A stretch of DNA of 64,000 nucleotides from NCBI GenBank assembly GCA_016867415.1, contig VGJO01000001.1:148312-212311 (forward strand), given 5' to 3'. The DNA comes from Candidatus Harrisonbacteria bacterium. GTDB taxonomy: Bacteria > Patescibacteriota > Minisyncoccia > UBA6257 > UBA11618. Below the pieces are notes generated by a model that made no database searches, was not told where the DNA came from, and saw only the letters and a program-made list of their open reading frames with translations. How positions within the stretch are numbered: position 1 is the stretch's first letter; every line of letters begins with the position of its first letter. Shown in pieces: positions 4,576-42,180 of this stretch. The position numbers and the translations under genes were made by a program.

Positions 4576-5136
4576 CTACCCTTCAGTAAGGGTTTTTGCT
4601 ATCAATCCAATAGTGAAGATGCCCATGCTATTAAAAATAAATGCTATCGTAAAAAACACTCTAGATTTTACTTTTGACAAGCCAAGCATAGCGACACCAA
4701 TCTCATCTGGAAAAGGAGAAGCTATTATAAGTGCCCCCAGAATTGGAATGAAAAATCGAAAAAATCTTGTTCTAAAAAAACTAATCCACCCTTTTTTTCT
4801 CTTTGAAGAAAATAAATAGGTAAAATCACTTGAAATTTTGTCTTTCACAAATCTGAAAATAATATAATCGCCGACAGCCGCCCCTAGTCCTCCCAAAAGA
4901 ACAAGAAGTGGGAGGGGAGTTACCTGGGCTAATTCTCCAAGCAAGACAATAGATGGAGCGGTGGTAAAGACAGAGGTAAAAAATAATCCAGCAAGAAATA
5001 TTCCTAGCCACTCTAATGTATTAAGTGATGCGACAAGCTGAGTTGCAAGACCAGTTACGCTAAAAAAGAACGCAAAAAGAATACTGACTGTTAGAAATAA
5101 AAGGTCTTTATAAAAGATTTTCTGTTGTTTCTTCAC
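4576..5136 (-). CDS. polytopic membrane protein, unknown function
   Basis: 186 aa, several hydrophobic helices, no recognisable catalytic motif. Confidence 0.45.
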   Translation of the reverse strand: MKKQQKIFYKDLLFLTVSILFAFFFSVTGLATQLVASLNTLEWLGIFLAGLFFTSVFTTAPSIVLLGELAQVTPLPLLVLLGGLGAAVGDYIIFRFVKDKISSDFTYLFSSKRKKGWISFFRTRFFRFFIPILGALIIASPFPDEIGVAMLGLSKVKSRVFFTIAFIFNSMGIFTIGLIAKTLTEG

Positions 5137-5177
5137 TAAGAAAATAATATCAATTCAATAACGAAAAGGATAATCTG

Positions 5178-5250
5178 GGTGCCTGACGGGAATCGAACCC
5201 GCATCACCGGAACCACAACCCGGGGCTTTACCACTAAGCTACAGGCACCA
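5178..5250 (-). tRNA. tRNA-His (anticodon GTG) with encoded G-1
   Basis: Reverse complement folds as cloverleaf: G-1 + acceptor GTGCCTG/CAGGCAC, anticodon loop TTGTGGT, T-loop GGTTCGATTCC, discriminator C; no encoded CCA. Confidence 0.8.
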
Positions 5251-5360
5251 TCATTCTTCTCAAAAAAATTGCAAAAAAAGATTCTTGAGAAACCTTATAA
5301 TAACACATATATCACTTTTTTCAAGTTTTTCTCCGCTTCTTTTTGTGAGAAAATACTTGG

Positions 5361-5999
5361 GTGCAGGCTCTTCTTGAATCCATAAAATTTTTCATCATTG
5401 ATCATGGCCCTTTGGCCATTTTTTTAATAGGTCTTATAGAAGAGCTGGTTTTTTTTATCCCCTCTTCGCCCATCTTTATCACTGCTGGCTTCTTTCTCAC
5501 TGATCCGCAAAGTAGTTTTACTGACGTCTTTCTGCAAGTGTTTTTTAATTTTGGCATCCTCGGCGCCTCTGGTCTCACTCTAGGATCCTACTTTATCTAT
5601 TATATCTTCTATTATGGCGGCAAACCCTTCATTCTTCGTTTTGGTAAATACGTTGGCGTGTCTTGGCAGGGGATTGAGCGTTTTGAAGAAAAAATGAAAG
5701 ATACGTATATCGATGAGTGGACTATTTTTTCTTTGCGGGCCATTCCCATTCTACCCATCACCTTTGTTTCTGTTTTTGCTGGTCTTATCCGGATTCACCC
5801 GCGAGAATTCGGCCTCTTCACTTTCTTAGGTGCGGTAGTAAGACTCACTATTTTAGGTCTTATCGGCTGGGCTTTTGGTGAGGCATACTCCACTTTCATA
5901 AAAGACATTCTTGAGGTAGAAAGATATGGCTCTATCCTGGTTATTCTCATAGTTCTCGCTTGTCTCTACTACCTTCTTAAAAAACGCAAATCTTTTTAA
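5361..5999 (+). CDS. DedA/VTT-family membrane protein (GTG start)
   Basis: 212 aa; 'GLIEELVFFIPSSPIFITAGFF' resembles the DedA re-entrant loop motif; multiple TM segments. Confidence 0.5.
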   Translation: MQALLESIKFFIIDHGPLAIFLIGLIEELVFFIPSSPIFITAGFFLTDPQSSFTDVFLQVFFNFGILGASGLTLGSYFIYYIFYYGGKPFILRFGKYVGVSWQGIERFEEKMKDTYIDEWTIFSLRAIPILPITFVSVFAGLIRIHPREFGLFTFLGAVVRLTILGLIGWAFGEAYSTFIKDILEVERYGSILVILIVLACLYYLLKKRKSF

Positions 6000-6002
6000 A
6001 AT

Positions 6003-7112
6003 ATGGCTGATTCAAAGCTCGAGAAAACCCTCAAAAAAATATCTTCAGAAAAAGAAAGTATTCTCCCTCTTTCCTCTAAAAAAGATATTGGTGCCAACCT
6101 TCTTCGTGATCTTATCGCTGACCGTCTTCACCATCTTTTTTCTCTTAAAAAGGATTGGTATGTAAATATTGATTCTGCTTCCGTTGAAGTTGCTTCTCTT
6201 GCCGCGCTTTCCTCTCTCATGGACTTTGGTGAGACCTTTCTCACTCTTTCTCTTGCCTCCGGCGGCTACCCGTTCTATAGTTCGCGCTTGAGTATAGTGA
6301 GCCGCGCCTATCGGCCTATCTCCTATAATGTCGATCCTTCTTCTGGTCTCATTGATTACGACGAAATCGCTCGGTTGATCGAGCTCCATGCTCCCAAGGT
6401 GATCATTTCTGGCGGCCTCACCTATCCTCGCATTATTGATTTTGAAAAAATCAGTAAGCTTGCCCATCGCGCCTCCGCTTTTCACCTTGCTGATATTTCT
6501 TCCATTGCCCCGCTCATTCTCGCCGGCCTCTACCCCCCACCTTTCAAAAGTACCGATCTTGTCCTTCTTGATACCCAATCTCTAACCGGCATAAAAAGTG
6601 GTTGTCTTCTTTCAGGGGAAGAGCTTTCTGATCGTCTTGCTCGTGCTGTCACTCCTGGTATTGAAACTACTTTCGATGAGGATAAATATATTTCTCTAGC
6701 CGCCGCTTTTCCTATTGCCTCTTCGCAGGAAGCAAAAAAACGGACCAAACAATCGGTAAAAAATGCCTCTCTCCTTGCAAGTCAGCTGAAAAAAACCAGC
6801 TTCACTCTAATGACCGACGGTACCGACACTGATTGCCTTATTCTTGATCTTCGCCATCAAGGCCTCTCGGGGAAAGAGGGAAGAGATCTTTTGAAAGCTG
6901 CCGGCATCTTTGCTGCTCCAAATTTTCTTTTCTCTGATTCTGATATCACTTCCCCCTCAGGTCTTCTTCTGAATACCTCGCACCTTCCGCGAGGAATGAA
7001 AGAAAGTGAAATAAAAATTCTCGCCTCCATAATAAGTGAGCTTCTCTTTAAAACAAAAAAACCTTCCGAAAAAAAATCTGAAGTTCTCGCTCTCCTAAAG
7101 AAATCTCAATGA
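6003..7112 (+). CDS. serine hydroxymethyltransferase-like protein, N-terminally truncated and lacking the PLP-binding lysine (probable pseudoenzyme)
   Basis: Collinear with GlyA: 'LSLASGGYPFYS' vs MNLAHGGHLTHG; 'HAPKVIISGG' vs HKPKMIIGGF; 'LDTQSLTGIKSG' vs TTTHKTLAGPRG (K replaced by S); 'TDGTDTDCLILDL' vs SGGTDNHLFLVDL. Confidence 0.6.
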   Translation: MADSKLEKTLKKISSEKESILPLSSKKDIGANLLRDLIADRLHHLFSLKKDWYVNIDSASVEVASLAALSSLMDFGETFLTLSLASGGYPFYSSRLSIVSRAYRPISYNVDPSSGLIDYDEIARLIELHAPKVIISGGLTYPRIIDFEKISKLAHRASAFHLADISSIAPLILAGLYPPPFKSTDLVLLDTQSLTGIKSGCLLSGEELSDRLARAVTPGIETTFDEDKYISLAAAFPIASSQEAKKRTKQSVKNASLLASQLKKTSFTLMTDGTDTDCLILDLRHQGLSGKEGRDLLKAAGIFAAPNFLFSDSDITSPSGLLLNTSHLPRGMKESEIKILASIISELLFKTKKPSEKKSEVLALLKKSQ

Positions 7113-7156
7113 ATAAAATAAATGGTCACCTTATCGCCAAAATTGCGAGCGTGAGC

Positions 7157-8341
7157 TTACTCAGAGGCTTCTCCTGCACCCATCTCCGTCCTCTTAGCCG
7201 CTTCTTTAATTTCCTTCTCTATTCTCTTAAGTAATTCTGGTTGTTCTTTAAGACTGACTCGTACGTTGTCAAAACCCACTCCGAGTTTAGTGTCCGAGAA
7301 AGAGTAGCTCGCTCCCGATTTAGTCACTACTTTGTATGCTAGACCCGTATTTAAAACATCGGCCTCATAAGAAATTCCTTCTCCATACATAATATCAAAT
7401 TCTGCATTTTTGAAGGGTGGTGCCACTTTATTTTTAACCACCTTTGCCTTCACTCGGTTACCTATAATTGTTTCACCTTTTTTGATCTGGGCCATCCGGC
7501 GAATATCAATCCGGACAGAGGAATAAAATTTGAGTGCCCGGCCGCCCGGCGTGGTCTCTGGTGAGCCAAACATCACCCCAATCTTTTCTCTGAGTTGGTT
7601 GATGAAAATAATCAGCGTATTCGTCTTAGCTGAAATTGCGGTTAGTTTCCGCAAAGCTTGCGACATCATCCGAGCTTGAAGGCCGATAAACTGCTGGCCC
7701 ATCTCTCCTTCAATTTCTGCTTTCGGCGTAAGCGCCGCTACTGAGTCTACTACTACCACGTCAATAATCTCCGATTTCACTAAGCCTTCTAGGATCGAGA
7801 GTGCTTCTTCTCCATTATTAGGTTGGGAGATAATCAGGTCTTTTACCTTCACTCCTAATCGAGCTGCATAGTCCGGATCCATGGCGTGCTCCGCGTCAAT
7901 GAAGGCGCACCGACCGCCTTTTTGCTGTGATTGAGCAATGCAATTAAGAGCTAAAGTTGTCTTTCCTGAAGATTCCGGTCCGAAGACTTCGATGACTCGT
8001 CCTTTTGGCAAGCCGCCGACTCCAAGGGCTAAGTCGAGTGAAAAGGATCCTGTGGGGATTACATCAATATTTACTTTTCGAAGTTCTCCCATCCGCATCA
8101 CTGATCCTTCGCCAAATCGATCCTGTAAATCCTCAATGAGCTTCTGTACTTCGCTGTTTTTCTCCTTCTCCTTTTTCTGATCTGCTGTCTGTGATGAGCC
8201 TCGATCTGAGCGGGCGGCCTGCTCTTTCTCTCGCTTCGCCGCCGCCTTCATATCCTCCTTCTCTTTTTTCTCCTTGTCCATATTTTTATTTGATGGGATT
8301 TTGTAATTCAAAGTTATATCGAATTTTTTCCTCTTATTCAA
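7157..8341 (-). CDS. recA: recombinase RecA with ~55-75 aa lysine/glutamate-rich N-terminal extension
   Basis: 'GSVMRMG', Walker A '[12 protein letters not shown]', 'IDAEHA', L2 loop region; extension MNKRKK...KKEKEKNSE precedes canonical start region. Confidence 0.9.
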
Positions 8342-9062
8342 TAGGGAAGATGTCTTCGAATGGAGAAATCTTTTTAGTGGTTATCGTAGGCGTACTCGTC
8401 GCCGCATGTATTTGTTCGTAGACAATCCGCTTGGTGAGAGTCGTCTCTCTACCCAAAAGTTTTTTCGCTTTAACCTCAATGATATTTATTCCTGCTGTGA
8501 GTGATAATTCTTTTTCAAATCGGCCATCTTCATCCACAAAAACATCCACGCCGTTGATCGTGATCTTTCCGCCTGCACCCGTCTTTCCTTCGATCTGAAC
8601 GCTGTTTTCCCGGACGATGAGATTATCGCTTTCTGGATAGGTGATAGTAAGTTTCGGTGTCCCAAGAAGGGTATTGATATTAAAAAGGGCATAAAGGGCA
8701 AAAAGAAAGATGATAAAGAGTGCTAAGAAATATTTTTTTCTATAAAATCGCAACGCATAGCGGTTGTTAGGAAGTAGATCCCTTTCTCCGGAGCTCCGTG
8801 GCCGAGTCTCCCGCTTATATGCCCGCCAGATATCCTCCGCCTGAAATCCCAGATTATCTCCGAGCCGCAAGATAAAGCCTCGTACATATGGCTCCGGCGG
8901 CAGCTTCTCATATTGCCCGAGAAGCATTGCATTAATAAATCGTTCCTGCACTCCGGTCTCCTCCACCAATTTTTTAACGCTTGTCCCCTTAGCATTAATG
9001 GCTTCTTTTAGGTATTCAGAAAACCGGAAATTTTCCATGGGGTCATTATAGGTAAGTCCCAC
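8334..9062 (-). CDS. RodZ-like HTH (HTH_25) membrane protein
   Basis: N-terminal HTH followed by '[20 protein letters not shown]' RodZ signature, one TM helix, C-terminal beta-rich domain; 8-bp overlap with recA. Confidence 0.55.
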
Positions 9063-9949: not shown

Positions 9950-12900
9950 ATGATTTTTTCCCGCCTCCTCTTTCTTATTGTCTTCATCCCTTTTTTCTCT
10001 CCTGCGTTTGTCTTTGCCTATGAACTCTCCGCCCACGAGCGCCTCACTCGAGCTATCATCGATTCTATCAATAATTCCAGCTCTTTTTCCCTTTCAGAAA
10101 GTGAGGCCGAGGCCTTGGTGAAAGGTGTTCTTGCCGAAGATAATCTTCCTCGGCCTCTTAATCATTTTTATGATCCCGTTCATAAAAAAGGTCTTTCTCT
10201 CGGTACTCATATTTTTGAATCCGCAAAAAGATGGGCCAATGACCCCTTCTCTCAAAGAACCTTCACGAAATCAAATTTTCTTACTCGCCGCCTTTTTAAT
10301 GCCGAGGATAATATCTTCACTTACAATCGTGCCTTAGAGCTCTACAAGCAAGGCAAGAAAATTGAGGCTTACGAACATTTAGGTCACGTCCTCCATCTTG
10401 TCGAAGACATGGGCGTGCCCGATCACACTCGCAATGACGCACACCCCGCCGAGACCAGTCCTTATGAAAATTTTACTAAAGATGCTCCTCTTCCATATTC
10501 AAAAAAGTATTTGAATACCATTGCTCCTCGCCGCTTCTCTTCCCTTGACGCTGTTTTTGTTCACCTCGCCCGCTATTCGAATTCCAGTTTCTTTTCTGAA
10601 GACACCATCCTTTCCGAAGACTATCCCGCTCCTATCCCCAAAGGAATAAAAAAAGTAGCCGACGGCTATGAGTACGCCTACCGCACTGATGAGAACGGTG
10701 TTGATTATCTTCTCTATCGCCGCCGTCTTCCCTCTCTTTCCAGTTTTATTGGCAATGACGCTTATACCGAATTTAATACTCTGAAAAGTCTCCCGGTATT
10801 GGAGGATTACTATGCTCACCTAAGTCGCGAGGTGATCGCCTCCGGTCTCGGTCTTTTCTCTTTATTTTTGAAAGATGTTGGTGAGCCCGATCTTTCTTTT
10901 ATTCCAAAAGTTTCTCTTTCTGACCCTGCCTTGTCTCTTATTGATTCCGCTTCATCCTCACCCGCAATCAGTCTCACGGTAGAAAGAGAAAAAGAATATA
11001 TTCCGGTTTTTGCTCGTGCTCCAGAAGATAATATCGCCGAATTTTCCGCTCTTCTTGCCTCCACTCCTAAAGTGCTAGAAGTCTTCTACAATGCCCCACC
11101 CGTCATTCCTCTTATTCTTGCTCCCTCCACCTCTTCCTCTCTTGCTTCTTCCTCGACTACCTCTCTCACATCTACTTCGACAGCCTCTTCTTTTTCTTCC
11201 CTCACTATTGCTGATTCAGAAAATTCCTCTTCCCCCGCTTCTTCTACGCTTGCCTCTACAACCCCACTTATTTCCGGATCCGCCCTTATCTCCGAAGTTT
11301 TCTTCGATGCCGAAGGTTCTGATACTGGCAAAGAATTTATTGAATTATTTAATCCCGGCGAAACTGCCTTTGATCTTTCTCTTGCCTCTCTGCAGTTTGG
11401 CGAGCTTGGAGGCACTATCAAGAAAAAGAATTTTGAATTGGGCAATAGCATTCCGCCTCACGGATTCTTTCTGATTACGATTGGAGAAGGGGATGCTCGC
11501 GATGGTAAGAAAGGGGACATGCTCTACAAAAGTGGTTCTTTGAAAAATGCCTCCGATACCATCCGCCTCGTAGCCGACCAAATCTCTCTCTCCGCTTCCT
11601 CTACTATCCTTGATAGCTTCCATTATGACATAAGAAATTTCCCGAACTTTACTCCTGGCGCTTCTCTTGAGCGGGCCACTCTTCTTGGCCCTTCCTCTTC
11701 TGACTGCGTAAGAAGCCAGGGTGATGCCGAATACTCCGGTCATTTCTGTCCTGCTCCTACTTTTTACCTTCGCTCTCTTCCTCACTCGCAAAACTTCGCT
11801 TCTTTCAAAGAGCCTCGAGCCTATCCTGAAGAGCCTATTAGCTACGCCTTCACTTTTGATTCCGCTACCCGTTCTCTTAATCTCTCCCTTTCCTCTATTA
11901 ACCCTTTTTCTTATAAGATAAATCTCATTCCCTCCACTGATTTCTTTTATCCCTCATCTGCTTCTCAAAGTTTCTCCACTACGACTAGCGTCTCTGCCAT
12001 TTTTCCTCTCTCTACCCTGGGCCATTCCCTCACCTTTGAGATCAATCTCACCGATGAAGAAGGATTCTCTCTCCCTCCAATATTGCTTCTCTATAATTCT
12101 CCCTCTCTTCTTTCTCATCCTTCATACATAGTCCGTGATGATCTGGGTGATGTCGCCGATCTTAACTTCTCCCTCTCTGATTTTACGAAAGAAATTATCA
12201 GGACTAATACCTCTCATTCCGCTGATACCTATCTTGGTTTTATGAAGCCCGGTTATCAAGACTTTATATTCTCCTCCTCTTCTCCTTCATTCGATCTCTA
12301 CCTGCCTTTCTTTGAGTCACTTTCACCCAGTGCCCCCGCCTCATATTTCCTAAAAATATCCCCCTATGGGAATATCCCCGCGAGTGACACGCTCTCCCTC
12401 GCTATCCAAAAATCCGAATCCGCAATTCCTGTACTTTTCTCCCGCCTTTACGCCTCTTCGACCACCGAGGTTGTCCCTCTCTATACCAATCCATCTCTTC
12501 TTCTCTCCGACCCGCTCTGCGACGGGAGCTTAGACTCTGATCCTTTCCGTGTTTCCTATAATTCCTTCTTCCACCGAGTCACCCTCCGCTCTTGCCGGAG
12601 CGAGAACGATCGCTTTCTCTTTAGTTTCCGTCCAGTAAATTCCGACATCTCTCCTCTAGAAATAAAAAACTCTTCTGATCCCTTTGCTGTCTTTTCTCCG
12701 CTTGCGACCAACGAAAAGTATGAATTCTTAGTCGACCTCCTCGGTGTCGACGGCTCCATTATGAATCATTTCTCTACCACCCTTTTTATCCCCGGCCTCT
12801 TCTCTCGCTTCTCCTTCCCCTCCGAGCTTACGCCCGAAATTGATTCTGCTCTCTCTGAAGAGTTTGAAGAAATCCCTCCCTATATTAGTCTCGAATATTC

Positions 12901-13426
12901 CCGCACTCACCTCTCAGGTTTTCTTACTGAAAAATTATTCAATCGCTCTCTTGGTCTTATTCCGCCCATCACCTCCTCTGGCCAGAGCTTTATTTATCCC
13001 TACGCCAATCATCGTCTTATCCTCTTCACCGACACCGATCCCTCTACCCTTACCCCACCTGATAGCCTCACTCTCTCCAAAGACACCGACTTCACCCTCG
13101 ATTCTGGCACCCTCGGCTTTTCTCCGATCGAAGTCGCCTACACTAATGAAGACATGAGCCTCGAGTATAAGAATCGTTTCCCATATCTTCTCCTCTGCGA
13201 ATCTCGCTTCTATATCCTCGGCCTCGATAATAATTGTTTCAAGACCGACCTTTTACGCTCCTACAGTCTCCGCCTCCCGCTTCTTGTAAAAGACGAAGTT
13301 ACCGAATTTTCTCTCTTGATCTATCGTTTGCAACAGCTCCTCCCGGCCGCCGAAGGTGTCGAAGAATCCGCCCGTTTTGTCCTCGAAAGCATCGACAAAA
13401 ACCGCTATAAAAAATCCGCCGAATAA
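9950..13426 (+). CDS. giant secreted/surface protein: N-terminal zinc-dependent phospholipase C / P1-nuclease-like domain + lamin-tail domain (LTD) + long S/T/P-rich low-complexity region
   Basis: signal/anchor 'LLFLIVFIPFFSPAFVFA'; 'GHVLHLVEDMGVPDHTRNDAHP' His/Asp zinc-ligand pattern; 'ISEVFFDAEGSDTGKEFIELFNPGETAFDLSLASLQF' LTD signature. Confidence 0.65.
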   Translation: MIFSRLLFLIVFIPFFSPAFVFAYELSAHERLTRAIIDSINNSSSFSLSESEAEALVKGVLAEDNLPRPLNHFYDPVHKKGLSLGTHIFESAKRWANDPFSQRTFTKSNFLTRRLFNAEDNIFTYNRALELYKQGKKIEAYEHLGHVLHLVEDMGVPDHTRNDAHPAETSPYENFTKDAPLPYSKKYLNTIAPRRFSSLDAVFVHLARYSNSSFFSEDTILSEDYPAPIPKGIKKVADGYEYAYRTDENGVDYLLYRRRLPSLSSFIGNDAYTEFNTLKSLPVLEDYYAHLSREVIASGLGLFSLFLKDVGEPDLSFIPKVSLSDPALSLIDSASSSPAISLTVEREKEYIPVFARAPEDNIAEFSALLASTPKVLEVFYNAPPVIPLILAPSTSSSLASSSTTSLTSTSTASSFSSLTIADSENSSSPASSTLASTTPLISGSALISEVFFDAEGSDTGKEFIELFNPGETAFDLSLASLQFGELGGTIKKKNFELGNSIPPHGFFLITIGEGDARDGKKGDMLYKSGSLKNASDTIRLVADQISLSASSTILDSFHYDIRNFPNFTPGASLERATLLGPSSSDCVRSQGDAEYSGHFCPAPTFYLRSLPHSQNFASFKEPRAYPEEPISYAFTFDSATRSLNLSLSSINPFSYKINLIPSTDFFYPSSASQSFSTTTSVSAIFPLSTLGHSLTFEINLTDEEGFSLPPILLLYNSPSLLSHPSYIVRDDLGDVADLNFSLSDFTKEIIRTNTSHSADTYLGFMKPGYQDFIFSSSSPSFDLYLPFFESLSPSAPASYFLKISPYGNIPASDTLSLAIQKSESAIPVLFSRLYASSTTEVVPLYTNPSLLLSDPLCDGSLDSDPFRVSYNSFFHRVTLRSCRSENDRFLFSFRPVNSDISPLEIKNSSDPFAVFSPLATNEKYEFLVDLLGVDGSIMNHFSTTLFIPGLFSRFSFPSELTPEIDSALSEEFEEIPPYISLEYSRTHLSGFLTEKLFNRSLGLIPPITSSGQSFIYPYANHRLILFTDTDPSTLTPPDSLTLSKDTDFTLDSGTLGFSPIEVAYTNEDMSLEYKNRFPYLLLCESRFYILGLDNNCFKTDLLRSYSLRLPLLVKDEVTEFSLLIYRLQQLLPAAEGVEESARFVLESIDKNRYKKSAE

Positions 13427-16886: not shown

Positions 16887-17015
16887 AATTAAGCTCTTTA
16901 AATTGAGAGACATTACGCGTTTATACATTTCTAATAAATTTGTGGATGTGGTCGATTGGAGAGGCAGCGGCTCCGTAAGCCGTGCATCGAAGTTTGATTC
17001 TTTGTATCTACTTTT

Positions 17016-17087
17016 GTCGGGATAGATCAGTGGTAGGGCATAGGATTAAAAATCCAAATGTCGGAGGTTCAATTCCTTCACCCGGCT
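17016..17087 (+). ncRNA. tRNA-like gene with 7-nt anticodon loop UUAAAAA (anticodon AAA); possible pseudo-tRNA or tRNA-like module of a longer ncRNA
   Basis: cloverleaf: acceptor GTCGGGA/ACCCGGC (one A.A mismatch), D-arm GATC-AGTGGTA-GGGC, T-arm GGAGG-TTCAATT-CCTTC; unusual A34 anticodon; lies 125 nt downstream of promoter and 195 nt upstream of a strong terminator. Confidence 0.35.
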
Positions 17088-17280
17088 CTCGGTCTGAAGT
17101 CGCAAGTTACTTTGCCATTTAGATCGAAATCTCTCTTTGTCTATCGTCTTGATTTCCTTATTAGTCTTATACAAGCCCTGCGCTTGAGACTTTCCGAAAG
17201 GATTCCTAAAGGAAATGATTGACAAACTCCAGTCAACATCGAGTTCATTCCCTCGTTACTGGATGAGAGATGTTTCCTCT

Positions 17281-28631: not shown

Positions 28632-28914
28632 TCCACTACTACTAGATAAACAAAGAAAAAGAAGAAACAGAATAATCAGTAGAAGAGAGATAAGGTCGGC
28701 TACACGAGCGAAAGAAGCCAAAAATACGAGCGAAGATAAATCCTTTCTTGTTGCCCCAAAAGGTTTTGTTTATCAAACAGAGGATAATCAAACAGTAAAG
28801 TAAGTGAACACATCAAACACTTCTTTATCAGTCCGGCATTGCCATTACAATGCTTGGATTTATCGTGTTATCGACTACTTGAGAAAAGAAAACAATAAAG
28901 TTTCTTTTCTTTTC

Positions 28915-30418
<1,504 letters not shown>

Positions 30419-38530: not shown

Positions 38531-39403
38531 ATGCTCAAAAATTTTTCTCTTATAATATTTATCTCCTCCCTTTTCCTCTTTACCGCTCTCGCCGCTCCCG
38601 GCGACATTAATCCTGTTCCCGGTGAATCTTTTCATTTCGGTTGGAACGATCTTTTTGGTTTCCTTGATTGGAAGCCTGGATCGACCAATATTGTCTCGGT
38701 AAAAAGCAATCATCTTGAAGGAAAGATTGTTACGAGTATCGGCGACATCTACCTTGATTGTGCGACTGCTAAAAATACGAGCTGTGCCTCTGCTGAAGAT
38801 TGGTCCGTGAAAAAAAATCTAGACAGCCTCTGCGAATATGGCTGGAATGATCTTATTGGTTGGATAAAGTTTGCCTCGAGTTGCAACCCGCTCGAAGCCA
38901 ATCATTGGGGCGTGAGTCTTATCCCCGCTGATTCCGGTACTAATCGATTCTTTGATGGTTTCGCTTGGAACGATGTTGTCGGCTGGATTAGTTTAAGTTC
39001 TGACAATGACCATGATACTGCCGCGGGCATCCAAACTTCCTCTAGCGTCTACAAGGTAAAAGTCGAAGGCACTGGTGTCACTTCCGTAAAAGCCAGTCTC
39101 GAGTCTAATATTTTCGACACCAATTTTCCCGCTCCCTCCTGGAACTATATCCTCTGGCAGGGGAGTCTCGCTGGGAGTGAACCTACCTCCGTCTCCTTTA
39201 TCCTCCTCTCCTCTGATTCCTCTGCCGGACCCTGGGATTTCTCCAGTCTCTCTGCCGTTACCTTAAGAGGCAATCCCGGCGAAAAAATATTCTTCCCTTC
39301 AGACTTCCCCAAGAAACGCTATCTCAAATACCAAGCTCTCCTAATGTCCTTAAACGGAATTTCTCCCATCATCGACGACTTCATTATTAATTGGAGTCCG
39401 TAG
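38531..39403 (+). CDS. secreted protein with three G(W/F)ND-x2-G(W/F)(I/L) repeats; T4P-associated (tip/adhesin candidate)
   Basis: signal peptide; 'FGWNDLFGFLDW', 'YGWNDLIGWIKF', 'FAWNDVVGWISL' repeats; several Cys. Confidence 0.5.
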   Translation: MLKNFSLIIFISSLFLFTALAAPGDINPVPGESFHFGWNDLFGFLDWKPGSTNIVSVKSNHLEGKIVTSIGDIYLDCATAKNTSCASAEDWSVKKNLDSLCEYGWNDLIGWIKFASSCNPLEANHWGVSLIPADSGTNRFFDGFAWNDVVGWISLSSDNDHDTAAGIQTSSSVYKVKVEGTGVTSVKASLESNIFDTNFPAPSWNYILWQGSLAGSEPTSVSFILLSSDSSAGPWDFSSLSAVTLRGNPGEKIFFPSDFPKKRYLKYQALLMSLNGISPIIDDFIINWSP

Positions 39404-41954: not shown

Positions 41955-42108
41955 AATTTTCTCTTTTCCAGCCGATGAACGGCTTACATCGTTAAGTATT
42001 TCTGAATATAGCTTTCAGACAAGCATTCTTGATGAAAATTTCAACGTTCTCCCACAAACACTATAAGTACCCAATTTTTATATAATTATGTAAAAATTTT
42101 TATTAGTG

Positions 42109-42180
42109 TGCCGAGAGGGTGAATCGAACACCCGACGCCAGCCTCTTCAGGGCTGCGCTCTACCACTGAGCTACCTCGGC
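42109..42180 (-). tRNA. tRNA-Phe (anticodon GAA)
   Basis: reverse complement GCCGAGGTAGCTCAGTGGTAGAGCGCAGCCCTGAAGAGGCTGGCGTCGGGTGTTCGATTCACCCTCTCGGCA folds as cloverleaf; anticodon loop CTGAAGA. Confidence 0.85.

Follow-up and report, generated by a model that had tools for sequence, protein, structure and literature searches.

A catalytically stripped homologue of serine hydroxymethyltransferase (SHMT, GlyA) is encoded in a stretch of 64,000 nucleotides, hereafter the window, of contig VGJO01000001.1 from a metagenome-assembled genome (MAG) of Candidatus Harrisonbacteria, a lineage of the candidate phyla radiation (CPR). Its open reading frame (ORF) occupies the slot next to recA where related genomes carry glyA. 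The protein is probably a pseudoenzyme derived from an enzyme of fold type I dependent on pyridoxal 5′-phosphate (PLP): a catalytically dead protein with the SHMT fold that is still produced, serves a non-catalytic role and is under weak purifying selection. The probability attached to this reading is roughly 0.55. The original prediction, a pseudoenzyme or an SHMT fold repurposed for something else, is thereby supported; the loss of catalysis is read directly from the residues, whereas the retention of a role is what we infer. By position the gene is the ortholog of glyA in this lineage; it was left behind in place after its partner folD was deleted from the locus, and for most of its divergence selection probably kept the ORF open.

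The protein is recorded in GenBank as MBM3281266.1, 'hypothetical protein FJY91_00740', and the Prokaryotic Genome Annotation Pipeline (PGAP) gives it no other name than hypothetical protein. It matches the Pfam SHMT family PF00464 with 176.9 bits (E = 6.4e-52) over profile positions 69–399 of 399, the gathering cut-off of this family being 27 bits. With the NCBIfam model PRK00011 (NF000586) it scores 193.9 bits, which is under the curated cut-off of 335 bits for naming a protein SHMT. The closest solved structure by sequence is the SHMT of Thermus thermophilus (E = 1.5e-45). Collinearity with GlyA, claimed from the letters alone for the PLP and C-terminal domains, holds over the large and C-terminal domains, and the gene does lie between a DedA membrane protein and recA (Table 1).

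The catalytic positions were read from a profile of 104 canonical SHMTs and are given here in E. coli numbering. The column of the Schiff-base lysine (K229) holds a lysine in 104/104 canonical SHMTs and falls on a one-residue deletion in the window protein, which reads LLDT-QS against TTTHKT. The missing PLP lysine, described originally as TTTHK turned into LDTQS, is thus confirmed; the alignment was examined for a lysine that a shifted manual alignment could have concealed, and no conserved lysine is present at the PLP position. The replacement of the HGGHLTHG loop by SGGYPFYS was recovered in the profile alignment as well. The pairing of HSGSQAN with DSASVEV was right in that the motif is degenerate; its register was two positions off, HSGAQAN aligning with ASVEVAS.

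The full list of replacements comprises G98V, N102S, H126Y, L127P, H129Y, S175L, H203S, H228Q, G262T, G263T, P264F and R363L. The catalytic residues S97, D200, T226 and N347 are retained, and R235 is conservatively replaced by lysine. In the PLP-binding set (S97, G98, H126, D200, H203, T226, H228, G262/G263 and Y55 of the partner subunit), S97, D200 and T226 alone remain, Y55 being deleted. In the set that contacts substrate and folate (S35, E57, Y64, Y65, R363 and N347), only N347 is left: E57, Y64 and Y65 are excised, the motif of S35 has degenerated and R363 is a leucine. Scoring against PF00464 together with the annotation of the active site therefore gives a strong family match and a longer list of lost residues than had been noticed at first. 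In each of the catalytic features that define membership of GlyA, the window protein is deficient. With the lysine, the stacking histidine, the phosphate-cup glycines, the carboxylate arginine and the Glu/Tyr loop all lost, the protein, judging from its residues, would be unable to form an internal aldimine or to carry out SHMT chemistry, and would not be an SHMT.

About 60 N-terminal residues forming the tetrahydrofolate (THF) pocket had been thought absent. This does not hold: the N-terminus is present, and what is lost is one internal stretch of 31 residues, deleted in frame. Residues 1–31 of the window protein (MADSKLEKTLKKISSEKESILPLSSKKDIGA) match the N-termini of the orthologs from related CPR loci (MKDKVLEKLIKAEAKRQVKTINLIASENYAS), hereafter the sisters, from position 1 onwards, the alignment beginning with MADSKLEKTLKK... 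in the window protein and MKDKVLEKLIKA... in the sister orthologs. The deletion removed the loop ...LGSxLxNKYSEGYPGKRYYPGN... (NKYSEGYPGxRYY), which bears Y55, E57, Y64 and Y65. The window protein is about 32–41 residues shorter than the four sister orthologs with coinciding starts (401–410 residues). Compared with the ortholog at locus L013, there are only three internal insertions or deletions (31, 1 and 1 residues), all in frame.

The AlphaFold2 model of the protein has a mean predicted local distance difference test score (pLDDT) of 93.3 and a predicted template-modelling score (pTM) of 0.91. Its top match with Foldseek is the SHMT of B. stearothermophilus (1KKJ), with a template-modelling (TM) score of 0.86 and a root-mean-square deviation of 1.7 Å. 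The two-domain architecture of the fold-type I SHMTs is predicted to be kept.

Related loci were retrieved by a search anchored on RecA in a set with one genome per GTDB species, from which the window's own genome is absent, the best RecA match in that set being 76%. The closest RecAs (72–77% identity) belong to Harrisonbacteria and related Patescibacteria MAGs. In 10 RecA-anchored loci (RecA 67–77% identical over the aligned length), an SHMT gene is convergent with recA and located 1–5 kb beyond the recA 3′ end, and in 10/10 of these sister loci folD lies 0–1.7 kb downstream of the SHMT gene. The order HTH_25, recA, SHMT, DedA (DedA further along the SHMT strand) is common to the window and to loci L013, L022 and L090; in L013 and L022 the full string is DedA-MFS-PLD-SHMT-FolD, tail-to-tail with recA. 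This shared gene order and the convergence of SHMT with recA in the sisters identify the window gene as the positional ortholog of glyA. Synteny with the window was seen only in the RecA-anchored loci: the gene contexts of the best canonical matches, P0002 and P0007, show none, P0002 being two genes away from folD and P0007 archaeal-looking. All nine full-length sister SHMTs keep 21/21 of the catalytic residues checked, the Schiff-base lysine included (9/9), against four plus the conservative R235K in the window copy.

Neither folD nor the MFS and PLD genes of L013 and L022 are present at the window locus, where spacers of 3 and 44 nucleotides remain. A tblastn search of the 64-kb window found no trace of folD and no second SHMT. 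Within this clade, the SHMT-FolD pair is evidently breaking up by more than one route.

Some further observations concern the sister loci. The SHMT of L021, with 256 residues, was considered as a truncated sister copy and rejected, as the record contains a masked run of N. In L012, L017, L019 and L023, folD is tail-to-tail with recA and no SHMT gene is found within 10 kb, which is the state complementary to that of the window. The canonical SHMTs of the sister clade are unusually basic, with a calculated isoelectric point of 9.1–9.8 in 8/9 (L013, L020, L090, L018, L022, L024, L025 and L027); that of the window protein is 8.6.

The RecA of the window is 67–77% identical to those of the sisters, inside the sisters' own range of 65–79%. 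Between sisters, the SHMTs are 53–65% identical, whereas the window protein shares only 31–38.5% identity with them. From RecA, an SHMT identity of about 58% would be expected, and the deviation of the window protein from this expectation amounts to z = −5.9 to −8.2. As the divergence of RecA is ordinary and the SHMT identity low, the acceleration is specific to the SHMT-like gene in the window lineage. The nearest canonical relatives of the window protein are CPR SHMTs, at 37–40% identity, and the closest database matches that were inspected are canonical SHMTs with their motifs intact. Among the 149 nearest representatives, only four others are without the Schiff-base lysine in the profile alignment.

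Lysine-less SHMT-like proteins of other kinds were also encountered. P0251 (682 residues) has THN for THK and an N-terminal extension of about 300 residues with a multi-transmembrane look. P0167, of 440 residues and high GC, has TDR at the motif, and P0250 has SGG there.

An artefact of assembly, binning or gene calling (through chimerism of the contig, errors in sequencing or a non-standard genetic code) is suggested by nothing more than the metagenomic origin of the genome, and it is exceedingly improbable. The identical protein with its flanks is found on at least five contigs that were assembled independently and come from different samples, so the gene is not an assembly artefact; a near-identical three-residue allele occurs in a sixth, and the same intact ORF is present in six assemblies. 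The source samples are JGI 3300020214 and 3300020198, SRR7990525, SRR16108670, SRR16108673 and ERR14789947. Long standard-code ORFs run throughout the window and the stop ahead of the ATG is the TAA of DedA, for which reasons both an alternative genetic code and a read-through fusion with DedA were rejected.

Whether the gene is maintained or decaying was addressed with the columns conserved in at least 8/9 sisters, which number 167. The window protein has lost 18 of them by deletion and replaced 73 of the remaining 149 (49%), so that 51% are retained. Neutral decay was simulated from the DNA of three sister genes, using the base composition of the window and several transition/transversion ratios. 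The neutral route to the observed loss takes about 1.05 mutations per codon and entails on average 13–17 stop-creating mutations. Over the three starting genes and the several mutation models, the probability of an open ORF under neutrality is 4e-8 to 2e-6, frameshifts uncounted. With 13–17 stops expected and the frame nevertheless open, neutral decay alone cannot explain the gene. The ORF is intact from ATG to TGA and shows none of the marks of a unitary pseudogene (stop, frameshift or truncation).

The pattern of replacements also differs from the neutral simulation, with modest effect sizes. The mean BLOSUM62 score of the replacements is −0.38, against −0.81 under neutrality (z = 2.3), and 70% of the replaced hydrophobic residues are still hydrophobic, against 48% (z = 2.3). 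At the conserved sites, 61% of the hydrophobic residues are retained and 39% of the polar ones. The codon-usage log-likelihood of 0.283 per codon compares with 0.240 ± 0.086 for the window genes, and the frame margin of 0.637 with 0.609 ± 0.115. The 1.1-kb ORF has remained at full length while folD and the MFS and PLD genes were removed scarlessly.

Amino acid composition carries information of two kinds. Plus-strand genes of the window have T/C-rich third positions, for which mutational equilibrium lies at 14% Ser, 16% Leu, 12.8% Pro and 2% Gly. The SHMT-like protein contains 13.6% Ser and 15.2% Leu, where the other window genes average 7.9% and 10.8%; its Pro (4.3%) and Gly (5.1%) contents are away from equilibrium. 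As Ser and Leu have reached equilibrium but Pro and Gly have not, it appears that many sites drifted freely and that fold-breaking changes were excluded. The bias itself extends over the whole window (1–64000), where each 2-kb bin has a negative GC skew and the plus strand carries most of the genes, their third codon positions being strongly T/C-rich. This strand-specific mutational bias drives other fast-evolving proteins to Ser and Leu, such as a protein of 1158 residues at 9950–13426 (14.7% Ser) and another at 38531–39403 (14.1% Ser).

The most serious alternative to a maintained pseudoenzyme is a non-functional relic: glyA would have become useless once the folate one-carbon module was lost, and its ORF would merely be undisrupted so far, perhaps with weak residual function having lasted for a long time beforehand. 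This alternative is possible but clearly less favoured. It is consistent with the deletion of folD from the locus, with the bare label of hypothetical protein, and with the confinement of the gene to one species-level population, no relative above 39% identity being present in the databases searched. Several observations weigh in the same direction, against a role maintained to this day. A word-indexed search of 5.8 billion protein clusters returned nothing above 37% identity besides the protein itself, and an exhaustive HMMER scan of 1.84 billion representatives no relative closer than 39%. The databases searched contain no second species with the degenerate gene, and hence there is no ratio of non-synonymous to synonymous substitution rates (dN/dS) for it. 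Ser and Leu contents at mutational equilibrium indicate that many sites were free to drift. Active-site columns that are invariant in the sisters are retained in 3/14 cases and other invariant columns in 30/64, a trend only (Fisher p = 0.09–0.13), the second class including many second-shell residues. The structure prediction leans on the alignment with canonical SHMTs; it is compatible with the fold and does not prove folding. A scan of positions 5100–8500 for promoters and terminators gave nothing over the shuffled background.

Between the window and L006, the only polymorphism seen in the SHMT-like gene is four nucleotide changes in three codons, three non-synonymous and none synonymous, whereas RecA and DedA together show 0:6 (Fisher p = 0.012). 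Three polymorphic codons are too few to measure selection on the gene, and the difference from all flanking genes, at 7:11, is not significant (p = 0.09). Present-day constraint looks very weak or absent.

What counts against the relic is the improbability of a 369-codon frame staying open after about one mutation per codon, together with insertions and deletions that are all in frame, replacements conservative beyond neutral expectation, avoidance of proline and a typical coding score. The flanking dispensable genes were wholly removed and the SHMT-like gene was kept. Given that improbability, a relic would still require selection for most of the divergence, with neutrality setting in only recently.

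SHMT is an obligate dimer with active sites built from both subunits, and prozyme-type heterodimers are known for other dead paralogs of obligate-dimer enzymes. The window protein could be the regulatory or structural partner, in such a heterodimer, of another, canonical SHMT whose gene would lie elsewhere in the genome, given that the fold is predicted to persist and with it presumably the dimer core. This is unlikely. The native glyA slot points to an ortholog and not to an extra paralog, neither a second SHMT nor folD is encoded within the 64 kb, and the deleted loop is one that reaches into the active site of the partner, so that one site of the heterodimer would be crippled.

New chemistry, either independent of PLP, with PLP bound non-covalently, or with a relocated lysine such as K198 in GIKSG, is less probable still. 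The ORF is maintained, D200, S97, T226 and N347 are retained, and a lysine is found 6–7 residues downstream of the lost one. That lysine, K198, aligns with the conserved R235 and not with a pocket position, nearly all residues of the PLP, substrate and folate pockets are changed, and the bulky G98V, G262T and G263T would fill the phosphate cup. The absence of homologs leaves no new conserved motif to be defined, and the extensive drift to Ser and Leu speaks against a finely tuned new active site.

For the pseudoenzyme, the following sequence of events is proposed. The ancestral arrangement would have been glyA followed by folD, convergent with recA, as still found in related CPR genomes. The window lineage would then have dismantled its one-carbon module, folD being deleted without trace, like the MFS and PLD genes of two relatives. 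GlyA would have lost catalysis through deletion of the lysine, replacement of the stacking histidine by tyrosine, of the phosphate-cup glycines by valine, threonine and threonine, and of the carboxylate arginine by leucine, and a 31-residue in-frame deletion would have taken out the loop that supplies Tyr55, Glu57, Tyr64 and Tyr65. The gene is probably co-transcribed and translationally coupled with DedA, 3 nucleotides upstream. Its product may be a non-catalytic scaffold with the SHMT fold, under weak purifying selection. One may speculate that it binds a protein or has some other structural role, which is more plausible than the sensing of serine or folate, since the ligand contacts themselves are gone.

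Table 1. Features of the SHMT-like locus in the window and loci of the Firmicute-like family (coordinates of the latter refer to their own loci).
Feature	Position	Strand	Remarks
SHMT-like ORF	6003..7112	+	369 aa, ATG-to-TGA; positional ortholog of glyA, catalytically stripped
Retained N-terminal segment, residues 1-31	6003..6095	+	aligns from residue 1 with sister SHMT N-termini; LIASEN replaced by LPLSSK
Junction A31/N32 of the 31-residue in-frame deletion	6093..6098	+	NKYSEGYPGKRYYPG loop gone (E. coli Y55, E57, Y64, Y65)
PLP-phosphate motif SASVEVAS vs (H)SGAQAN	6174..6197	+	S97 kept; G98 = V, N102 = S
SGGYPFYS vs HGGHLTHG	6258..6281	+	PLP-stacking H126 = Y, H129 = Y
LADISSIAPL vs (V/A)D(M/I)(A/S)HIAGL	6486..6515	+	D200 kept, H203 = S
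Schiff-base region LLDT-QSLTGIKSG vs TTTHKTLRGPRGG	6564..6602	+	lysine deleted, H228 = Q, R235 = K
TPGIETTF vs FPGxQGGP	6651..6674	+	G262/G263 phosphate contacts = T, T
PSGLLLNT vs TSGIRxGT	6954..6977	+	substrate-carboxylate R363 = L
DedA/VTT-domain membrane protein	5361..5999	+	TAA stop 3 nt ahead of the SHMT-like ATG
Spacer, SHMT-like stop to recA stop	7113..7156	.	44 bp; sisters have folD here
recA	7157..8281	-	convergent with the SHMT-like gene; synteny anchor and divergence yardstick
HTH_25 gene	8334..9062	-	upstream of recA; conserved neighbour in sister loci
Firmicute-like glyA-derived family	L092:8001-9104, L094:555-1676, L095:3330-4481		proteins P0142, P0271-P0274, P0276, P0277, P0279

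A comparable protein was found outside the CPR. P0142 (367 residues) is lysine-less and sits in the classic Firmicute glyA slot, in the order prfA-prmC-sua5-LMWPc-rpiB-[glyA]-Epimerase_2-atp operon. It has seven relatives at 52–86% identity (P0271–P0274, P0276, P0277 and P0279), and the members of this family are about 370 residues long. The NKYxEGYPGxRYY loop is missing in the seven full-length members through a deletion of 19 residues; P0279, with 320 residues, is gapped there and may be incomplete. G98A is found in the seven full-length members, at least one of the two QGG glycines is lost in 8/8, and the lysine is absent from 7/8. The family keeps D200, T226 and S97. Comparison of three members gives a dN/dS of 0.21–0.26, against 0.02–0.16 for six neighbouring genes, so that a stripped glyA derivative can persist under purifying selection through speciation. 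By analogy, this persistence raises the prior that the window protein is functional.

The Firmicute-like family and the window protein have in common a place in the native glyA slot of their own lineages, the loop deletion, the replacement of G98, the loss of QGG glycines and the stripped architecture. They differ in that the family combines a 19-residue deletion with a truncation of the N-terminal helix, where the window protein has lost 31 residues, and in that the family comprises several species under measurable purifying selection, whereas the window protein is a singleton. The window protein and P0142 share 35% identity, no more than the window protein shares with canonical SHMTs, and their genomic slots differ. 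The nearest canonical relatives of the family are Firmicute SHMTs (46–55% identity). As the nearest relatives of each are the canonical SHMTs of its own phylum, the two are of independent origin. Tentatively, glyA derivatives without the lysine, the phosphate-cup glycines and the Tyr55–Tyr65 loop could form a recurrent, convergent class of non-catalytic SHMT-fold proteins in bacteria of reduced metabolism, kept because the SHMT scaffold has a second, non-enzymatic function that survives the loss of one-carbon metabolism; the CPR case would be the window protein, and the Firmicute-like family a second, independent one. Such a class is a conjecture to be held with considerable doubt.

Other features of the window and its neighbourhood are mentioned for completeness. 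RecA carries, ahead of its conserved core, an N-terminal low-complexity extension of about 50 residues rich in Lys and Glu (8132–8281, minus strand). Two weak tRNA-like genes stand in tandem on the plus strand at 16942–17012 and 17016–17088, with Rfam scores of 35.9 and 39.7 bits. ARAGORN calls only the one at 17016–17088, as a tRNA-Phe whose anticodon, AAA, is unusual; the window also has a normal tRNA-Phe(GAA), at 42108–42180. A complete 16S rRNA gene is present at 28913–30418 on the minus strand with no 23S or 5S gene within the 64 kb, which means that the rRNA genes are unlinked.

The SHMT-like gene has a bearing on how CPR metabolism is read from gene content. In a survey of gene presence, glyA was reported in 81.3% and folD in 79.7% of 4,581 CPR genomes (PMC11974145). 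Surveys of folate metabolism in CPR bacteria rest on such presence calls, and criteria at the Pfam level would count the window gene as glyA: it lies 150 bits over the Pfam SHMT threshold, so that pipelines based on domain presence would call glyA present. A Pfam-positive glyA can thus be catalytically dead and without its folD partner. The locus documents how one CPR lineage has taken its SHMT-FolD module apart step by step. It also amounts to a natural experiment on what becomes of a fold-type I PLP enzyme when catalysis has been freed from selection and the protein is nonetheless retained. Gone are the active-site loop, the lysine and the glycines that contact the cofactor; what remains is the hydrophobic core, D200 and the domain architecture. 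The same architecture having arisen independently in a Firmicute-like lineage under purifying selection, a second, non-enzymatic role of bacterial SHMT becomes a testable possibility.

On balance, the window protein seems to belong to a known kind of thing, the pseudoenzymes, its ancestor in this case being a PLP enzyme of fold type I. Literature searches brought up no account of a bacterial SHMT pseudoenzyme or of a degenerate glyA in a reduced genome. With canonical GlyA (EC 2.1.2.1; 1KKJ, 1DFO from E. coli, and the sister CPR orthologs such as those of L013, L022 and L090) the window protein shares homology, collinearity over the large and C-terminal domains and the genomic slot. It differs from canonical GlyA in having neither the lysine nor the Y55/E57/Y64/Y65 loop, and no adjacent folD.

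Two eukaryotic proteins of the SHMT family offer comparisons. The SHMT2 bound to BRISC is a PLP-free dimer. Its assembly into the human BRISC complex, in which an SHMT serves as a binding partner, appears as a reference listed in PMC10211241 (Walden et al. 2019). Unlike the window protein, which is degenerate, SHMT2 remains an intact enzyme and has a second role besides. In Arabidopsis, the nuclear SHMT homolog MSA1/SHM7 is inactive as an SHM in vitro and does not complement an E. coli shmt- strain auxotrophic for glycine, and yet a biological role is described for it (PMC5021336). The authors marked the PLP and folate binding sites of MSA1 on an alignment and a model (PMC5021336). Like the window protein, it is a member of the SHMT family that is inactive as SHMT. 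MSA1 is a eukaryotic nuclear paralog that exists beside active SHMs, whereas the window protein is bacterial and an ortholog, its locus apparently having no other copy, and its binding sites are destroyed. With these differences, MSA1/SHM7 is the nearest described analog of the window protein.

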